NCBI GenBank assembly: GCA_965367815.1
Contig: CBDUKN010000028.1
Coordinates: 1-27,939 of the forward strand
DNA from: an uncultured Thermoprotei archaeon
Lineage (GTDB): Archaea > Thermoproteota > Thermoprotei > Thermofilales > B15-G2
Direction of reading: 5' to 3'
Length of the DNA stretch: 27,939 bases
The notes below the pieces were generated by a model. It had not been told where the DNA came from, did no database searches, and worked only from the letters and a program-made list of their open reading frames with translations. Both the position numbers and the translations under genes were made by a program. Shown here piece after piece: positions 284 to 14,901 of the stretch (position 1 is the stretch's first letter; each line of letters begins with the position of its first letter).

Positions 284-1375
284 GTGAAGAAACTCGAAGT
301 AATGGAAATACCTAGGTACGTAGTTTTTGGCCCTAGGGCAGTTAGGGAAATAAGCAAAGTATGTTCAGCTTTAGGATTAGGGAGAAAGGTTGTGATAGTT
401 TGTGGTGGAGAAAAAACAACTAAAATAGCTGAAGAAGAAGTTAGACCCTATCTTGAGGAAGAAAACTACGATATTGTTGTTTTCCCTATAGGTTCCGGCT
501 ACCCGACTGTAGAAAAAATTCTTAAAATAGAGGAAAGAATACGTGTATTAAAGAGAGATTTCGTTTTAGCTGTAGGTGGGGGAAGAACAATAGATGCCGC
601 GAAACTGGCAGCTACTTGGGCCGGTATACCCTATATAAGTGTTCCGACAAGTGCTGCAAATGATGGAATATCTTCTCCCGCAATATCTTTCTTGCTCCGA
701 ATGGATGTTAAAGAGAAATTAGGAGAAGGAAAAAGTCGAGCAAAAGCGCCAATTGCCATAGTCGCGGACACTGATATTATTTCAAGAGCGCCTCCTGAAA
801 CAGTTGCCGCGGGCTGTGGCGACATGCTCGCAAAGTTTGTTGCAGTTCGCGACTGGAGGCTCGCTTATAAGCTTAGAGGAGAAGACTTCAGTGAATATGC
901 TGCATCAGTAGCCTTAATGAGTGCTGAGCTAATTGTAAAGAAAGCAGAGTACATTAAGAAGGGGCTTGAAGAAAGTACGAGGCTCTTAGTTAAAGCACTT
1001 ATTGGAAGTGGAGTCGCTATAAGTATAGCCGGAAGTACTAGACCAGCCTCTGGAAGCGAGCATCTCTTCAGCCACGCACTAGATCTTCTTTCGCGCAAAT
1101 ATGGATTTAAGCCAGCTCCACATGGAATGCAGTGCGGAGTAGGAGCCATAATGATGATGTGGCTTCACGGCGGAGACTGGATGACTATTAAAGAAACTCT
1201 CAAAAAAGTAGGTGCACCGACTAATGCTGAAGAACTGGGAATAGAGCCAAAGTACATAATCGAGGCTCTGACTATAGCGCATAAAATAAGACCTGAAAGA
1301 TATACCATACTGGGAGAAAAGGGCCTCAGCAGAGAAGCTGCCATAAGAATGGCTAAAGAAACGGAAGTAATCTAA
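284..1375 (+). CDS. egsA: sn-glycerol-1-phosphate dehydrogenase (archaeal lipid backbone)
   Basis: GGGRTID, PTSAANDGISSP, GCGDMLAK, RPASGSEHLFSHAL, HGMQCGVG and RPERYTIL motifs; GTG start about 25 nt after TATA-like CTTAAGTA (251-258). Confidence 0.95.
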   Translation: MKKLEVMEIPRYVVFGPRAVREISKVCSALGLGRKVVIVCGGEKTTKIAEEEVRPYLEEENYDIVVFPIGSGYPTVEKILKIEERIRVLKRDFVLAVGGGRTIDAAKLAATWAGIPYISVPTSAANDGISSPAISFLLRMDVKEKLGEGKSRAKAPIAIVADTDIISRAPPETVAAGCGDMLAKFVAVRDWRLAYKLRGEDFSEYAASVALMSAELIVKKAEYIKKGLEESTRLLVKALIGSGVAISIAGSTRPASGSEHLFSHALDLLSRKYGFKPAPHGMQCGVGAIMMMWLHGGDWMTIKETLKKVGAPTNAEELGIEPKYIIEALTIAHKIRPERYTILGEKGLSREAAIRMAKETEVI

Positions 1376-1456
1376 GTCTTTTGACAGCATAGGAGCGGCT
1401 GGAGGCTAGGAAAGAGTAAAATATCTGTAAATAGAGACTAGTTTCGGCGAAAGTAG

Positions 1457-2647
1457 ATGAGTAGACCATTCTACATCGCTACTCCGGAAGAAATACTCAA
1501 AGGAGAGGCAACAGACGTATACTACAAGAGAACTCTCGAAATTCTCAAGAAGAAAAACTTAGACAAAACTAAAGTAATAATGGACATGCACTCGTACTCT
1601 TTCCCTAAGAACTACAAGTGGGCTGTATTCGCTGGACTCGAAGAAGTTCTCAGAATACTTGAAGGAAAGCCTGTCAAAGTATGGGCCATGGACGAGGGAA
1701 CTATTATTCGGCCATGGGAACCAGTAATAAGCATTGAGTGCCAGTACGGCGACGTCTGCGTCTACGAGAGCATTTTCCTGGGAATAGTTCGCTTCTACAG
1801 CAGTATAGCGACTAAGGCTGCTAGACTAAAGAAAATAGCAGGCGACAGGAAAGTAGTATTCTTCGGTATAAGAGCACTCCACCCTGCAGTAACTCCAGCA
1901 GCCGATAGAGCCGCTTTCATCGGAGGCTGTGATGCAGTAAGCGGAGTTATAGGGGCTAAGCTTATAGGAGAAAAGCCTGTAGGCACAATGCCTCACGAGC
2001 TGATACTTATTTTTGAAGACCAGCGAAAGGCCTGGAAAGCTTTCGACGAAGTAGTTTCACCTGAAGTGCCGAGAATATGTCTCTGCGACACGTGGTTTGA
2101 TGAAAGAGTAGAAGCAGTCATGGCGGCAGAAACTCTCGGAGAAAAACTCGCGGCAGTAAGATTCGATACACCTGGCTCAAGAAGAGGAAATATGCTAAAA
2201 ATAGTTAAGGAAGCCCGCTGGACACTAGACCTTCTAGGCTACAAACACGTAAAAATAGTTGTAAGCGGAGGTATAGATGAAGAACAAATAGCTGAGCTAA
2301 AAGAGTATGCAGATTTCTTCGGTGTGGGAACAGCTATAGCCTGTCCCCCGCCTGTAGACTTTTCCTTCGACTTAGTAGCTAAGTACGATGAGAAAACAGG
2401 CGAATGGAAGCCAATAAGCAAAAAGGGCAAGCTTCCTGGAAGAAAACAAGTCTACCGCTGCGAAAACTGCTTTGAAGACTACTTAGTTCCTTGGAACAAA
2501 AGTCTAGACAAATGTCCCAAGTGCGGAGGAAAAGTAAAGCCATTACTCAAACTCTATGTAGACAACGGTAAAATAGTAAGAGAGCTTCCTCCTGCCCGCA
2601 AGGTAAGAGAATATGTCTTAGAGCAGTTAAGTAAAGTTGAGCTATAG
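1457..2647 (+). CDS. pncB: Nicotinate phosphoribosyltransferase with C-terminal Zn ribbon
   Basis: TDVYY, FGIR, GTMPH (phospho-His motif), DT, VRFDT, VSGG, FGVGT motifs; CENC...CPKC near the C-terminus. Confidence 0.9.
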   Translation: MSRPFYIATPEEILKGEATDVYYKRTLEILKKKNLDKTKVIMDMHSYSFPKNYKWAVFAGLEEVLRILEGKPVKVWAMDEGTIIRPWEPVISIECQYGDVCVYESIFLGIVRFYSSIATKAARLKKIAGDRKVVFFGIRALHPAVTPAADRAAFIGGCDAVSGVIGAKLIGEKPVGTMPHELILIFEDQRKAWKAFDEVVSPEVPRICLCDTWFDERVEAVMAAETLGEKLAAVRFDTPGSRRGNMLKIVKEARWTLDLLGYKHVKIVVSGGIDEEQIAELKEYADFFGVGTAIACPPPVDFSFDLVAKYDEKTGEWKPISKKGKLPGRKQVYRCENCFEDYLVPWNKSLDKCPKCGGKVKPLLKLYVDNGKIVRELPPARKVREYVLEQLSKVEL

Positions 2648-2691
2648 CAACCACTTAATATTTTAGTCTTCTACTACTATTTCTAGAGCAA

Positions 2692-4935
2692 ATGGCGCTA
2701 GACGAGTTTCTAGAGAGAATAGCCAGAGACAGAGCAAGAAAAATAGTATATGTTCACGTAGAAGAACCCAGGCTCCCCGAATGGGGGTGCTCTGTCGACG
2801 TTCTCCCTGTACCCGAGCCAGTTAAAAATAGCTTAAAAGCAGCGGGCATAACAAGACTGTATAGATTCCAGGAGCAGGCTATCAAGACTATTCTCTCGGG
2901 AAAAGATACTTTAATTCTAGCTGGAACAGGAATGGGTAAAACAGAAGCCTTTCTCGTACCAATTTTAAGCAAAGTAGTAGAAAATCCTTTTGGAGGAGTA
3001 AAAGCCCTCCTAATATACCCTACGAAAGCCCTCGCAAGAGACCAGCTCAAAAGAATACTGAAGTTAACTTCAACAATATTTGGAGCGAGAGTAGCTGTTC
3101 TCGACGGAGATACTCCTGAGAAAGAGCGCAGAAGAATATACTCTAATCCGCCGCCAATACTCATAACAAACCCCGATATGATTCATGTATCACTCCAGCT
3201 TTCGCAGGAATTCAAGCATTTAATAAGCACAGTGGAATACGTCGTCTTAGACGATGTCCACGTATACAACGGTGTTTTAGGAGCACACGTAGCATATGTT
3301 TTAAGAAGACTGCGTAGAGTACTTAAAGAAGAGCCTCTCTTCATAGGTTCCTCAGCAACAATAGGAAATCCTGAATCTTTTGCTAAAAAATTCTTCGGAA
3401 AAGAAGTAGAAGTCATTAGAGCAGGAGAGTCAAAGAAAAGCAGAGTTACTCACGTTCTAGTAAAGCCTTTTGGTAGATCAAAGTACGTAGAAGCACTAGC
3501 TTTACTTAAAGTAAGTTTAGAAAAAGGCAAGAAGACTCTGATATTTGCTGATAGCCATAGAGCAGTAGAGTCCCTTAAAAGATACGCCAACAGATATAGA
3601 GTTCCTCTAAAAGTCCACAGAGCAGGAATCTCCCCGAGCGAGAGAGCGAAAATAGAGGAGCTTTTTAGAAAAGGAATACTTAGAGCCCTCGCCGCAACGC
3701 CTACACTTGAAGTGGGAATAGACATAGGAGACCTTGACGTAGTCATATTACTCAACATACCGCCTACATACACCAGATACGTGCAGAGAACAGGAAGATG
3801 TGGTAGAAGAGGACAAGAAGCCTATGTATTCACTATTCTAGGAGACGACCCTATTAGCGGATACTACGAAAATAATCCTGGAGACTTTTTCAGAAGAGAA
3901 TACGACCCGATGGCAATAGACTTAAGCAACGAGGAAATAGTTAAAACGCATCTCTTAGCAATGGCTAGAGACCAGCCCTATAAACCTACAGACTTAACTC
4001 CTCTTGAGAGACAAATTTTAGCAAAGCTGCTGGTAGAAGGATTAGTCAGAGTAAATAATTATGTCAAGCTCACACGCAAAGGACTGAAGTACCTCAGGAA
4101 ACGAATGAGTCTAAGAGGAACAGGAGACGTAGTCGAAATAGTTGACAGCAGGACAGGTAGAGCTATAGGAAGCAGAGAGTTGCCTATGGCGATTCGGGAA
4201 CTTCATCCCGGAGCGATCTACATGCACGGGGGCGAACTATTCAGAGTAATCGAATATAAGGAAAAAGAAAAGAAAGCATTTGTAGAGAAAATACCAGTAG
4301 ACATTGAGCTTACAACGTACCCTCTCTACTACAGCGAGCCATCAGAAGAGAAAGTGCTTAGCGAGAAAAGAGTCTACAATACACCAGTAGCATACGGCGA
4401 GCTCACTGTGAGACAAGTCGTATGGGGATATGTTGAGAAAAACTTCTTCACAGGAGAAATGCTTTCTGAAAAAGTACTAGACAATGAAGTAAGCTACCTC
4501 TTTAAAAGCAAAGGAATATACTTGTGGATTCCGCCAAATCCCTCTTGGAATATATTTCAGAACGCCGAGGCATTTCATGCAATAGAGCACGCGCTAATAA
4601 CGGCAGCAGAGCTTCTTGTAGGAGCTTCTCCAACAGACTTAGCCGGAATAAGCTTCCCGTCAGGACACATCTACATCTACGACTCTCACGCGGGAGGATC
4701 TGGCATAAGCTATCTGCTTTACGAGAGACTCGAAGAAGCCTTCAAAAGAGCATACAACTTAGTAAAGAAGTGTAAATGCGAAGACGGCTGCCCACGCTGT
4801 ATTTTCTCGCCTTACTGTGGAAACAACAACAAGATACTTTCAAGGAAGAAGGCTCTTCAAGTACTCGAGACGATTATCTACAAGCCTAGAGTAATAGAAG
4901 TTATAGAAGAACGTTACGGAAAACCAATAGTTTAA
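2692..4935 (+). CDS. SF2 helicase of the Hrq1/SftH/MrfA type with C-terminal DUF1998 Zn-binding domain
   Basis: Q motif LYRFQ, Walker A GTGMGKT, YPTKALARDQ, TNPDM, motif II DDVH, SAT, TLEVGIDIG, QRTGRCGR; C-terminal HAIEHAL, IYD..AGGSG, CKCEDGCPRC. Confidence 0.9.
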   Translation: MALDEFLERIARDRARKIVYVHVEEPRLPEWGCSVDVLPVPEPVKNSLKAAGITRLYRFQEQAIKTILSGKDTLILAGTGMGKTEAFLVPILSKVVENPFGGVKALLIYPTKALARDQLKRILKLTSTIFGARVAVLDGDTPEKERRRIYSNPPPILITNPDMIHVSLQLSQEFKHLISTVEYVVLDDVHVYNGVLGAHVAYVLRRLRRVLKEEPLFIGSSATIGNPESFAKKFFGKEVEVIRAGESKKSRVTHVLVKPFGRSKYVEALALLKVSLEKGKKTLIFADSHRAVESLKRYANRYRVPLKVHRAGISPSERAKIEELFRKGILRALAATPTLEVGIDIGDLDVVILLNIPPTYTRYVQRTGRCGRRGQEAYVFTILGDDPISGYYENNPGDFFRREYDPMAIDLSNEEIVKTHLLAMARDQPYKPTDLTPLERQILAKLLVEGLVRVNNYVKLTRKGLKYLRKRMSLRGTGDVVEIVDSRTGRAIGSRELPMAIRELHPGAIYMHGGELFRVIEYKEKEKKAFVEKIPVDIELTTYPLYYSEPSEEKVLSEKRVYNTPVAYGELTVRQVVWGYVEKNFFTGEMLSEKVLDNEVSYLFKSKGIYLWIPPNPSWNIFQNAEAFHAIEHALITAAELLVGASPTDLAGISFPSGHIYIYDSHAGGSGISYLLYERLEEAFKRAYNLVKKCKCEDGCPRCIFSPYCGNNNKILSRKKALQVLETIIYKPRVIEVIEERYGKPIV

Positions 4936-9363: not shown

Positions 9364-10656
9364 ATTGAATACCTACCGATAGCCAAACTCCTTTCTTCCC
9401 CAAAAGAGGGAGAAGAAGTAGCTATTAGAGGATGGGTCTACAGAAAAAGAGAACTCAAAACAGGAGTATTCATTCTCGTAAGAGACTCTACTGGAGTAGT
9501 ACAGTGTGTAGTTAAGCCAGCAAATAAGGAAGCTTATCAAAAAGCTCTAGAGCTAGGTATAGAAAGTTCACTTAAATTAAAAGGAGTAGTCAAACTAGAC
9601 AAACGTGCTCCAGGCGGAGTAGAACTCCACGTAACAAAACTTGAGCCAGTTCACGTAAACTCTATTTTCCCAATAACTAAGGACGCTTCACCTGAATACC
9701 TGCTAGACGTTAGACATCTATGGCTAAGAAGCCGTAAAATGAACGCAGTTCTTAAAATAAGGCATACAGTCTTCGGAGCAATACACGAGTATTTCAGAAG
9801 CAAAGGCTTCTACGAAGTACAATGCCCCACATTCATTACGGCTGCATGTGAAGGAGGAGCAACACTATTCTCAGTAGACTACTTCGGAAGAAAAGACGTA
9901 TACTTAACGCAGTCGGCGCAGTTCTACTTAGAAGCACTCATATTCACGCTAGAAAAAGTCTACACAATAGCTCCTTCATTTAGAGCAGAGAAATCGAGAA
10001 CAAGGAGGCATCTAACAGAGTTCTGGCACGCTGAGGCAGAAGTAGCGTGGTGCGGGCTAGAAGATATAATGAAAATTGAAGAAGAGCTAGTAACATATAT
10101 TGTCAGAAAAGTCTTAAATGAAAGACTAGAAGAATTAAGTTTCCTTAAAAGGGATATAAATATGCTAGAAAACGTTAAGCCTCCATTCTACAGAATCACT
10201 TACGATGAAGCTTTAGAAATAATCAACAGAAAGGGATTCAGCCTTAAGTGGGGAGAAGACTTCGGAGCAGACGAAGAAAGAGCTCTGACAAAAGAATTCG
10301 ACAAACCAGTCTTCGTGTACGGCTATCCAGAAGAATGTAAAGCATTTTACCACAAAAACGACCCCAAGAGGCCGGAAGTCACTCTCTCAGTAGACCTACT
10401 GGCGCCAGAAGGCTACGGCGAAATAATAGGCGGAGGAGAAAGAATAGCCGACGAAAAAGAACTCGTCGAGAAAATAAAGAGATTTGGTCTTAGAGCAGAA
10501 GACTATGAATGGTACATAGACTTAAGAAGGTACGGCAGCGTACCTCACGCTGGATTCGGACTAGGAGTAGACAGAACAGTCATGTGGATAGCGGGACTAG
10601 ACCACATAGTAAACGCAATTCCATTCCCCAGAACCATTAGAAGAGTATACCCGTAG
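9364..10656 (+). CDS. asnS: Asparagine--tRNA ligase (full length, probable ATT start; ORF track start at 9739 is truncated)
   Basis: Frame is open from 9346 and encodes the OB-fold anticodon domain (IRGWVYRKR...FILVRDSTG.VQCV, RAPGGVE, LLDVRHLWLRS) ahead of CEGGATLF, YLTQSAQFYLE, FRAEKSRTRRHLTEF, GEIIGGGER, PHAGFGLGVDR. Confidence 0.93.
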   Translation: MEYLPIAKLLSSPKEGEEVAIRGWVYRKRELKTGVFILVRDSTGVVQCVVKPANKEAYQKALELGIESSLKLKGVVKLDKRAPGGVELHVTKLEPVHVNSIFPITKDASPEYLLDVRHLWLRSRKMNAVLKIRHTVFGAIHEYFRSKGFYEVQCPTFITAACEGGATLFSVDYFGRKDVYLTQSAQFYLEALIFTLEKVYTIAPSFRAEKSRTRRHLTEFWHAEAEVAWCGLEDIMKIEEELVTYIVRKVLNERLEELSFLKRDINMLENVKPPFYRITYDEALEIINRKGFSLKWGEDFGADEERALTKEFDKPVFVYGYPEECKAFYHKNDPKRPEVTLSVDLLAPEGYGEIIGGGERIADEKELVEKIKRFGLRAEDYEWYIDLRRYGSVPHAGFGLGVDRTVMWIAGLDHIVNAIPFPRTIRRVYP

Positions 10657-12409: not shown

Positions 12410-12763
12410 ATAGCTCTAATCGCCGTATAAGCTTAATAACCTTTTTCCGTATACTTCCATTAATTTCCAGTGCTACAGTAAGACACTCTATACTTTCTCT
12501 TCGGTATAAAAATTACCTCATTTAAATAAGAATATCACCAAAAGCTCTGCATCTTTTTAGCCTCTTTAGAAATTTTCTCTCGCGATTAACTTGAAGTAGC
12601 TACAGTAATAGCATTTAAACAAATTACAGACTACTATTAATAAATACCTTAAATTCATCTACCTTCAAACTCTTCTTTAAGGTACATTCTGGAAATTTCT
12701 TACATCTAAAAAGATTGATATATTCTAAAACATTACATAACTTTTCATATTTTTTCTATTTTC

Positions 12764-12806
12764 AGTTAAATTATTTAACTTAAGTAGGTCTTTTATTTAA
12801 CTTAAG
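12764..12806. repeat. ATTTAACT motif in three copies (one inverted, two direct)
   Basis: AGTTAAAT-T-ATTTAACT inverted repeat at 12764-12780; TTATTTAACTTAAG directly repeated at 12771-12784 and 12793-12806. Confidence 0.6.
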
Positions 12807-12819
12807 AAATAGCTCAAAT

Positions 12820-12877
12820 CCCTCTCCTAAATGCCTTCTAATCATCAGTCATCGTAACTCTGATCGATCATCGGGCT
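12820..12877 (-). ncRNA. Probable box C/D methylation-guide sRNA with two guides to 23S rRNA H69-H71
   Basis: Minus strand reads AGC-CCGATGA(C)-TCGATCAGAGTTACG-ATGA(D')-CTGATGA(C')-TTAGAAGGCATTTAG-GAGA(D, non-canonical)-GGG. The guides are complementary to GUAACUCUGA and AAAUGCCUU, recalled as neighbouring conserved crenarchaeal 23S segments. Confidence 0.7.
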
Positions 12878-13009
12878 AAAATAAATTCCTTAAAAGAAAA
12901 CTTAAGCTTAACTCTTCTACTCGCAAAAACTAAGGCCAACATTTAGGTACAGAATAACTAAAAGAAAAGAAACAAAATCTAATATTTTGACTCAGAAGGA
13001 GAAGCATTA

Positions 13010-13045
13010 GGCACCAAATTTTTATAAAAATGGAGCTCTATAGTA
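13010..13045. repeat. Left copy of 36-bp palindromic inverted repeat, overlapping the ATPase TATA box
   Basis: GGCACCAAATTTTTATAAAAATGGAGCTCTATAGTA; 28/36 identical to the reverse complement of 14453-14488. Confidence 0.8.
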
Positions 13046-13051
13046 CATACC

Positions 13052-14356
13052 GTGATAGATAAGGAACTTGTAAAAAGATATATTGTCGAGTTTCGTAGAA
13101 GGGATTTCTCTGATGTTAAGAGAAGAGAATTAAAAGTTGAATTTATTAAAGGTAAAGCAATATGTATTGTCGGGCCTAGGAGAGTTGGAAAAACCTATTT
13201 CCTTTACTCATTGATGATGAATCTAGAGAACCAACTTTACGTTGATTTCGAGCACCCAGTCTTCTATAACGTTTCTCCGAGAGATATAATTCATATAATT
13301 GACTCCTATTTCGAGCTATATCCAGAAAGAAAAAATCTCTATGTATTTTTGGACGAGGTTCAAGCAGTAGAAGATTGGGAAAGGATAGTGAGATACCTAC
13401 TAGATAGAGGTTTTTATGTTGCAGTAACAGGGTCTTCGTCTAGATTAATGTCACATGAAATAGCTACACATCTTAGAGGTAGATCCATAACATATTACTT
13501 ACTTACTCTAAGTTTTAGAGAAGCTTTAAATTTTAAAAATATAGAACATAAGGGAGAAAACTTCTATTTAAATTATAGCAAAATTAAAGGACTTATATCG
13601 GAGTACCTGAAATATGGAGGTTACCCAGAGGTTATTCTCTATGATGTAAAGGAGAGGGTCTTAAAAGAATATCTTAACTTAATAATAAGAAGAGATATTA
13701 TTGAAAGATATAATATCAGAAATAAGCATCTAATAAATGAATTAATATACTTTGCAATAAATAATTATTCTAGATACATTTCCTATGATTCGCTTCTTAA
13801 GCTTTTTAAACAAAGACTAAACGTTACTAAAAGAACTATAATTAACTACTTGTCCTACTTTGAGGACTCTATGCTATTCTTCTTTCTAAGGAGATTTGAA
13901 CCGTCTATTAAGTCTAGAATTGTTTCTCCAAGGAAAATTTATCTAATAGATACAGGTTTCGGAATTTTCGGAAATAAAAGCATTTCAAGAGATATGGAAA
14001 ATGCGGTATTCTTAGAATTACTAAGAAGAAAATACTACTTTAATCCATTATGTGAAATATACTACTTTAAGGACTCCCAAGGACATGAAGTAGATTTCGT
14101 AGTGAAAGAAGGTGATAAAGTAAAAGAGTGTATAAATGTGACATATGCTAGTGGCTTTGATGAAATCGATAAAAGGGAATGGAGAAGTTTATTGAAGGCA
14201 AGAGAGGTATTAGGATGTAGTAAGCTAACTATAGTGACATGGGACTACGAGGACAAAAAAGAATTAAGCTGGTTTGGAAGAAGAGGAGAAATAAGTTTTG
14301 TTCCACTATGGAAGTGGCTGCTACAAATTCCTAGTAAAGAAAGAAGAAGATATTGA
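13052..14356 (+). CDS. AAA+ ATPase, COG1373 type (AAA_14 + DUF4143)
   Basis: Walker A GPRRVGKT, Walker B VFLDEVQ, TGSS, YLKYGGYPE, RKIYLIDTG, ENAVFLEL, EVDFVV; visibly more AT-rich than the flanking core genes. Confidence 0.92.
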   Translation: MIDKELVKRYIVEFRRRDFSDVKRRELKVEFIKGKAICIVGPRRVGKTYFLYSLMMNLENQLYVDFEHPVFYNVSPRDIIHIIDSYFELYPERKNLYVFLDEVQAVEDWERIVRYLLDRGFYVAVTGSSSRLMSHEIATHLRGRSITYYLLTLSFREALNFKNIEHKGENFYLNYSKIKGLISEYLKYGGYPEVILYDVKERVLKEYLNLIIRRDIIERYNIRNKHLINELIYFAINNYSRYISYDSLLKLFKQRLNVTKRTIINYLSYFEDSMLFFFLRRFEPSIKSRIVSPRKIYLIDTGFGIFGNKSISRDMENAVFLELLRRKYYFNPLCEIYYFKDSQGHEVDFVVKEGDKVKECINVTYASGFDEIDKREWRSLLKAREVLGCSKLTIVTWDYEDKKELSWFGRRGEISFVPLWKWLLQIPSKERRRY

Positions 14357-14452
14357 ATTTTACGCACATATTAGTGAGATAAATTAGCCTCTTAAGCAGG
14401 TTCACAGTTGTTGGTTTTAGTAAATGCTATATAAGAAGACTGCTATACTGTA

Positions 14453-14488
14453 TACTATGGAGCACCAATTTTTGCAAAAAATGGTGCC
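14453..14488. repeat. Right copy of 36-bp palindromic inverted repeat
   Basis: TACTATGGAGCACCAATTTTTGCAAAAAATGGTGCC; the 26-bp core 14462-14487 is a palindrome with one mismatched pair. Confidence 0.8.
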
Positions 14489-14574
14489 CTATTATTCATG
14501 TCTGCTGGTAAAACCCATAAAAAGAAGTATTTTGCGGAACCTACAGTAAAAATTTATCTTAATAGTATAGCAAC

Positions 14575-14901
14575 TTAAATATCACTAAAAGCTTCTAAGC
14601 TAAAAGGTATAGAGAATGCTTCTATTAAAAGCTCTAAGATTTCTTTCTCAGCGCATTCACTACACCAGCCGAGAACACTATTGTCGGAGAAAAACGCTAA
14701 TGCCACTTTTTCTTCGGTAAGCCTTGTTGCACATGAAGCACAGTAGGCTTCATCTTCGAGAAGAGAAGCGAGTACTGCTAACAGTTTCGGCTTATCTTCC
14801 TGAGGCACTTGAACCAGCTCTCCTTCAACCCATTCAAATACTCTAGGCTTATTGAGAAGCCTTACGAACAAGTAGTCCCAGAATAGTTTCGGCGACCTCA
14901 C
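14575..14901 (-). CDS. Hypothetical protein with a putative Zn finger
   Basis: 108 aa with CASC...WCSEC; divergent from the next gene across a 59-bp TATA-containing spacer. Confidence 0.6.
   Translation of the reverse strand: MRSPKLFWDYLFVRLLNKPRVFEWVEGELVQVPQEDKPKLLAVLASLLEDEAYCASCATRLTEEKVALAFFSDNSVLGWCSECAEKEILELLIEAFSIPFSLEAFSDI

Follow-up and report, generated by a model that had tools for sequence, protein, structure and literature searches.

Why should a single archaeal gene stand between two copies of what looks like the same palindrome? The window studied here is an entire contig of 27,939 bp from an archaeal genome of 2.45 Mb (38.6% GC), and the gene in question encodes an ATPase with AAA_14 and DUF4143 domains (COG1373; PADLOC candidate PDC-S01). 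A sequence-only reading of the contig had proposed a self-contained cassette, in which the protein binds its own flanking sites, either for autoregulation with looping or as the ends of a transposase-less mobile or defence module. The answer that I favour, at somewhat better than even odds, is that this is a solitary PDC-S01 gene whose left palindrome (L) acts as an operator at which the gene's own product, by its winged helix, probably represses the promoter, and whose right palindrome (R) is a second copy of that operator; the two sites would not be mobile ends. The features on which the argument turns are the following.

13010..13037, + strand: left palindrome L, GCACCA-N14-TGGAGC, centred on the TATA box and 28.5 nt 5' of the GTG start codon; proposed operator

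13021..13028, + strand: TATA box TTTATAAA of the ATPase gene, read from the sequence, its placement resting on archaeal promoter geometry

13052..14356, + strand: gene for the AAA_14 + DUF4143 ATPase, 434 aa, GTG start, identified with Pfam and PADLOC

14461..14488, no strand: right palindrome R, GCACCA-N14-TGGTGC; the more symmetric copy of the putative operator

Two related palindromes

The two sites share the form GCACCA-N14-TGG(A/T)GC, with the same 14-nt spacing, and a recount agrees with the earlier figure of 28 matches in 36 positions between 13010-13045 and the reverse complement of 14453-14488. Each copy is itself palindromic, as had been claimed: 24 of 28 positions are self-complementary in R and 18 of 28 in L, and a repeat search extends R to 18-nt arms (14457-14474 and 14475-14492) with 83% complementarity. 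L does hold the TATA box of the gene; archaeal promoter geometry is an established basis for placing such a box, and its position would imply a leaderless or near-leaderless ATPase mRNA. The centre of R (TTTTTGCAAAAAA) makes a poor TATA box. R begins 104 nt 3' of the ATPase stop codon, close to the 100 bp first estimated, and 86 nt beyond the stop of a convergent gene of 108 aa, so that it is flanked by two convergent stops. Both palindromes are unchanged in a metagenome contig of 99.6% identity, and in a more diverged strain the sole difference at R is at 14460, a position just beyond the core.

The L/R pair is more than a chance resemblance. When the 28-nt L was used to query both strands of the whole genome with up to 8 mismatches, a scan for further copies that the sequence-only reading had called for, the only other match was R, which lies 1.45 kb off and has 7 mismatches. 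Furthermore, R is the single genomic occurrence of GCACC-N16-GGTGC. The local alignment of L with R scores 32, against 19.3 +/- 2.5 (maximum 30) in 300 shuffles, and the same upstream/downstream match exceeds all 2,450 non-cognate pairings among 50 homologous loci (maximum 31). The sequence match alone is modest, because R as the query also matches 11 other genomic places at 7-8 mismatches, two of them at 7; the significance of the pair is carried by proximity and common spacing.

The orientation of the pair is a different matter. A tail shared by the two copies (ATAGTA) had been taken to fix them as inverted, but a direct alignment (13011-13048 with 14462-14499) is equally good, at 29 of 38 positions. 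The core matches at 21 of 28 positions in direct and in inverted orientation alike, the tails at 8 of 12 (direct) and 9 of 12 (inverted), and the flanks beyond the core show no significant likeness in any orientation (shuffle fractions 0.46, 0.75, 0.058 and 0.84). The orientation of the repeat cannot be established.

Promoter architecture across the family

Homologous loci were collected in two sets, one of 26 loci with flanks from 15 of the 41 genomes of the order, the other, independent of it, of 28 loci from the 56 matching genomes in a phylum sample of 251. Without the near-duplicates L022, L047 and L052, the pooled set holds 51 non-redundant loci. Each promoter received the score of its best palindrome between -90 and +3, and 600 random promoters of this genome, belonging to ORFs of at least 200 aa, served as controls.

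In nearly every promoter of the first set, the TATA box is bracketed by inverted repeats or by a small palindrome present twice. The median best score is 10 in these 26 loci as opposed to 6 in the controls (Mann-Whitney p 5e-14), and 16 of the 26 score at least 9, a level reached by 3% of controls. Eleven of the 28 loci in the second set score at least 9 and 16 at least 8; in the pooled set, 35 of 51 loci score at least 8, compared with 9% of controls. These 35 strong repeats are centred at a median of -27.5 from the start codon (interquartile range -33 to -26), and in 22 of them the middle is occupied by a strict TATA-like word. Two further metagenome loci share this layout.

When the promoters are read on a maximum-likelihood tree, clade A carries TGTGGA..TCCACA twice in five of five rows, clade B carries GTTGTTCT..AGAACAAC in five of five, and clade C (10 rows) together with locus L014 carries TATAGGGAAA..TTTCCCTATA; long-branch singletons, the studied gene among them, have private arms each. 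Read in this way, the repeat sequences track the protein clades. The two paralogs in this genome (on C32 and C10, 38-40% identity) each carry a dyad over the TATA box too, the arms being different, which brings the operator types counted in this genome to three: those of the studied gene, the C32 paralog and the C10 paralog. Both of these full-length paralogs were noted as bearing class-C operators. The 90 ORFs flanking 50 loci are a heterogeneous collection with no conserved partner; KaiC, the most frequent family, turns up three times and helix-turn-helix proteins twice.

The closest comparison for L itself comes from the ortholog L045 (61% amino acid identity), whose promoter retains GCACCAAA, the TATA core, TGG at the 14-nt spacing, and TAGTACA. 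GCACCA-N14-TGG is therefore retained in the sole ortholog with an intact upstream region, the other (L038, 72%) being cut by a contig end. L045, the closest complete ortholog, also has a frame change some 40-90 nt into the gene, the first 22 or so codons matching the studied protein in a different frame from the remainder, which may mean either a pseudogene or an assembly error. Another metagenome contig, L041, holds a tandem array (1003-3664) in which a 21-codon C-terminal relic is followed by genes at 1129-2352 and 2378-3664, and each full gene has its own palindromes around a TATA-like word upstream. A loose search of the genome for half-site pairs that might form a regulon returned mostly chance matches.

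The ATPase and its relatives

Pfam assigns AAA_14 (PF13173, E 5.9e-32) to residues 34-159 of the protein and DUF4143 (PF13635, E 3.6e-20) to residues 213-357, and the PADLOC profile for PDC-S01 (PDLC04787, E 1.4e-94) matches over its full length, residues 33-425 aligning with profile positions 26-408 of 412. An AlphaFold2 model built from 24 homologs (predicted local distance difference test score 90.8) divides the protein as follows, with approximate boundaries.

Residues 36-160: AAA+ core

Residues 171-218: helical lid

Residues 225-298: winged helix

Residues 311-418: PD-(D/E)XK-like domain

The modelled winged helix is a three-helix bundle (helices within 225-272) followed by a wing, and the C-terminal domain is of the alpha/beta type. 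The best Foldseek matches are archaeal AAA+ ATPases (2qen, 2fna), DNA-bound Orc1/Cdc6 (2qby, 2v1u), STAND NTPases and the Can2 nuclease, and there are also fold matches to NLR, CED-4 and Avs4. Residues G41, G46, K47, D101 and E102 (Walker A and B) are invariant in 24 sequences, as are E316 and D348. The third PD-(D/E)XK motif is canonically (D/E)xK, in place of which the alignment has (Q/N)-V-T. The protein matched no NCBIfam family, and no PDB entry by sequence; a homodimer prediction scored 0.00, which speaks neither for nor against a dimer. In the model, an Orc1/STAND-like AAA+ ATPase is joined to a winged helix and, C-terminally, to a PD-(D/E)XK-like domain, and the domain assignment made from the sequence alone (AAA_14 with DUF4143, winged helix and nuclease-like C-terminus) agrees with Pfam, model and fold matches.

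The family is patchily distributed, with matches in 15 of the 41 genomes of the order and 56 of the 251 in the phylum sample. This genome holds ten matches to the ATPase, including the paralogs at C32:3345-4610 and C10:20581-21855 and seven weaker ones. A search of the 40 other genomes of the order gave no relative above 46% identity, and the closest relatives lie outside it: L045 in genome G066, from another order, and L038 in an unplaced archaeal metagenome-assembled genome. Viral contigs yielded no relative. The gene is indeed more AT-rich than its neighbours (31.7% GC compared with 39.5-44.7%); among the 1,066 ORFs that reach 250 aa, it stands at the 2.3rd percentile of GC. Composition alone is no proof of recent import, because both paralogs are likewise AT-rich (1.9th and 4.2nd percentiles).

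In PMC12988326, PDC-S01 ranks fourth in frequency among the defence candidates of prokaryotes; it is said there to be enriched in Archaea and to be an ATPase fused to a PD-(D/E)XK domain, without experimental validation. The accessible parts of the literature on DUF4143, COG1373 and PDC-S01 contain nothing that I could find on promoter or regulation, and the main text of a 2024 "guilt-by-embedding" preprint names neither PDC-S01 nor DUF4143. By its profile, the gene is a common, uncharacterised candidate for an anti-virus ATPase-nuclease.

A segment missing from the sister genome

If L and R were the ends of a mobile unit, where would an empty site break? G001 (85% complete), which is the one further genome available for the genus, lacks an ATPase ortholog at E 1e-40 or better but keeps the neighbourhood, with 17 unrelated nt in place of the segment below.

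12915..14593, no strand: variable, AT-rich segment of 1,679 bp, defined against G001, with the ATPase gene, L, R and 95/105 bp of extra flank

Positions 12816-12914 align to 1501-1598 of L013 in G001, and 14594-14772 to 1616-1794 of the same locus. An empty-site allele thus exists, as the sequence-only reading had suggested looking for, but its junctions (12914/12915 and 14593/14594) lie 95 bp to the left of L and 105 bp to the right of R instead of near the repeats. The target-site duplication that was not visible earlier is indeed missing, the junctions having only the hexamer CTTCTA in common. The flanks of the segment have no second copy in the genome, and the segment itself encodes no transposase or recombinase; its only ORFs of at least 20 aa are the ATPase gene and short unsupported frames. 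Contigs of the diverged strain bridge both junctions, and contigs from four metagenome DNA runs contain no joint across the segment, the parts without cover not being interpretable. The convergent 108-aa neighbour is confined to this genus (2 of the 41 genomes of the order). The phyletic pattern suggests that the gene was acquired.

The idea of a tRNA or att site was also dropped: a tRNA search of the contig found none, and a GGTGCC near-match on C18, which corresponds to a tRNA-like 3' end, is taken as chance.

The left palindrome as a probable operator

I read L as an operator because TATA-centred repeats occur family-wide, their arms follow the protein clades, no partner gene is conserved beside the loci, and the left arm of the site is kept in L045. 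The half-sites GCACCA and TGGAGC, 14 nt apart, bracket the TATA box, so that a protein bound to them would exclude TBP and TFB; L looks like an operator that works as an on/off switch on the core promoter. The most economical candidate for the bound protein is the gene's own product, acting through its winged helix, in which case it probably represses its own promoter via L. Such negative autoregulation would make sense for a gene that bears a nuclease and moves horizontally. R would then be an auxiliary site for the same protein, either looping with L or forming a roadblock to antisense read-through from the convergent gene; this is the most likely role for R, and also the least certain step of the scheme. 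Of the earlier proposal of autoregulation with looping, the left site has thus gained comparative support, while the paired downstream site does not recur in homologs.

Several points weigh against this picture. L scores 7, below the control 95th percentile of 8, and its dyad is weak (18/28). A partner operator downstream was found in none of 50 loci, nor beside either of the closest orthologs (72% and 61%). A crude screen for class-specific residues, in which any co-variation of operator and recognition helix might have shown up, picked out 12 positions, only one of them in the winged helix (residue 279) and none within 221-260, and winged helices of the STAND type often do not bind DNA. Shared descent could explain part of the clade-specificity of the operators, since the loci are related and not independent; the controls come from one genome, and start codons were set by a fixed rule, with probable mis-starts at several second-set loci.

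Some of the same points could be turned in favour of a real operator whose binder is an unlinked transcription factor rather than the ATPase, a reading that I consider rather improbable. The often structural role of the winged helix in STAND and AAA+ proteins, a matter of general knowledge to which the NLR, CED-4 and Avs4 fold matches add, would fit it, as would the single winged-helix position among the 12 from the residue screen. The arms, however, differ among paralogs within one genome, so every class would call for a separate unlinked factor, transferred along with a solitary gene, and no regulator gene is conserved beside the 50 loci. A bolder scheme, to which I give slightly less credence still, would make each PDC-S01 protein a sequence-specific, DNA-binding Orc1-like ATPase-nuclease with a specificity of its own in the winged helix, its promoter palindrome serving both as off-switch and as target or exclusion word. 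Paralogs would then be orthogonal self-silencing sensors, and here an L-R loop would silence the gene until infection titrates or remodels the protein.

What is the right palindrome?

Under the favoured reading, with L as the operator of the gene, R appears to be an extra operator copy specific to this locus and not a trait of the family. The sequence-only reading had expected paired flanking palindromes in homologs. The 26 loci of the order contain no convincing downstream copy, and no other operator match was found in 50. The only other high cognate upstream/downstream score, that of L045, comes from an unrelated 24-mer inside the next gene, and downstream of the 72% ortholog stands an Alba-like gene, with no R-like site. 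Any function of R is not a family property, because no homolog has a downstream copy. I would rank the readings of R in the order auxiliary operator, relic of a lost copy, terminator hairpin and, last, end of a mobile element.

That R is the decaying promoter or operator of a lost second copy of the gene (tandem or inverted), with no present function, is an unlikely alternative on a par with the unlinked factor. The family does form tandem arrays with relics, as in L041, and an ATG follows R by 9 nt. R is nevertheless more symmetric than L (24/28 compared with 18/28), the opposite of what decay would produce; the sequence beside it is not significantly like the 5' end of the gene in either orientation, and the 26-aa ORF that begins there is unlike family N-termini (shuffle fractions 0.50 for the best score and 0.06 summed). 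Less probable by a small step is a hairpin and oligo-T terminator serving both convergent genes, its likeness to L being incidental. R does lie where the ATPase gene and the 108-aa gene converge, between their stops, with T5 on one strand, T6 on the other and a GC-rich stem flanking them. Its RNA folds are ordinary, though (z -1.5 and -1.7; the folds of L and R together range between 0.0 and -2.0), a terminator scan came back empty, T-runs occur before R on both strands, and an incidental likeness would leave unexplained why R is the single best genome-wide match to L with the N14 spacing kept.

Terminal inverted repeats or XerA-type sites bounding a transposase-less mobile cassette come last, with very little probability left to them. 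The gene is missing from the sister species, is AT-rich and has its closest relatives in other orders, and L and R do flank it. Yet the empty-site breakpoints fall outside both sites, target duplication is absent, neither the sites nor the flanks have another genomic copy, the segment lacks a recombinase, the four metagenome runs show no joints, homologs have no paired sites, and the orientation of the repeat is not established. Because the breakpoints lie outside and there is no target duplication, transposase or second copy, I conclude from these comparisons that L and R do not form the ends of a mobile element; this removes the transposase-less mobile-cassette reading for this locus. The suggested resemblance to tyrosine-recombinase (dif-like) sites found nothing in its favour, the segment being dispensable in the sister species and the site moving with the ATPase promoter. 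A dif/Xer site was accordingly rejected as a candidate: both sites are missing in the same-genus genome, and the L arm is conserved only alongside the ATPase promoter.

One further frame was recorded beside R.

14498..14578, + strand: ORF of 26 codons, 9 nt past R; possibly meaningless, and the leaderless product if R were a promoter

A 41-aa ORF (14424-14549) overlaps it. A good TATA-like word, TATATAAG, lies at 14426-14438 (+ strand), about 25-30 nt 5' of R, and with it R could stand at the start of a short transcript.

Comparison with known systems

With PDC-S01/COG1373 the gene shares AAA_14, DUF4143, a full-length profile match and the habit of a solitary, patchily distributed gene. The likeness to Orc1/Cdc6 is of another kind. 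The AAA+ core, lid and winged helix come in the same order (2qby and 2v1u are among the top folds), and origin recognition boxes (ORBs), by their general layout, are inverted repeats about an AT-rich centre beside the protein's own gene, as here. Here, however, the AT-rich centre is 14 nt long and contains a TATA box rather than an unwinding element, the ATPase has an additional nuclease-like domain, and the gene is dispensable in the sister species. Judged by the model, the likeness is one of AAA+/winged-helix architecture only. An Orc1/Cdc6-ORB origin was considered and rejected: the Pfam domains are AAA_14 and DUF4143, without Cdc6 domains, and a 14-nt spacer separates the arms.

The best structural matches are the Arch_ATPase/DUF234 proteins SSO1545 (2fna) and PABY2304 (2qen), with template modelling (TM) scores of 0.40-0.49. 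They too are archaeal, multi-copy and without assigned function, but belong to other Pfam families (PF01637/PF03008) at 13-16% identity. One such protein adjoins the family member at locus L026.

Dyad operators over core promoters are established for the controller (C) proteins of restriction-modification systems and for archaeal repressors that bind at the TATA box or B recognition element (BRE). C-protein systems resemble this one in having a lineage-private operator over the promoter of a mobile nuclease-type gene; they differ in that the regulator is a separate small protein, whereas the presumed DNA-binding domain here is inside the ATPase-nuclease. Cassettes of the miniature inverted-repeat transposable element (MITE) or terminal inverted repeat (TIR) type, and dif sites, likewise have two similar palindromes flanking one gene, but at this locus the boundaries are off the sites, and there is no target duplication, multiplicity or recombinase.

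At this point, the comparison of promoters points to a family-wide architecture, for which I found no published description, in an abundant and uncharacterised defence candidate. A clade-specific operator around the TATA box hints that the winged helix reads DNA sequence, and a sequence-reading winged helix would constrain models of how such an ATPase-nuclease recognises its target.

Other features of the window

Upstream of the ATPase gene, an unusually long stretch of about 600 bp (12410-13009, 28-33% GC) has no supported ORF. Within it, a conserved block (12816-12914) contains a small RNA (sRNA)-like element at about 12826-12876 on the minus strand, the left junction of the variable segment being some 40 nt away. 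The element is 89% identical to G001, above the flanking coding DNA, and its 46-nt core occurs once per genome in 18 of the 41 genomes of the order. Words resembling C/C' boxes (GATGA) and D boxes (xTGA) surround two conserved stretches of 12-13 nt, the termini are complementary, and the minus-strand fold has a z of -2.8. From these marks it looks like a candidate box C/D sRNA. An Rfam scan gave three matches, all with E of at least 0.68 and far below gathering scores, and did not report the element.

Finally, a gene at 9739-10656 (+ strand) encodes a 305-aa protein that has only the catalytic core of a class II aminoacyl-tRNA synthetase (tRNA-synt_2 profile, 18-307), without an anticodon-binding domain, and which could be an asparagine-synthetase-like paralog.

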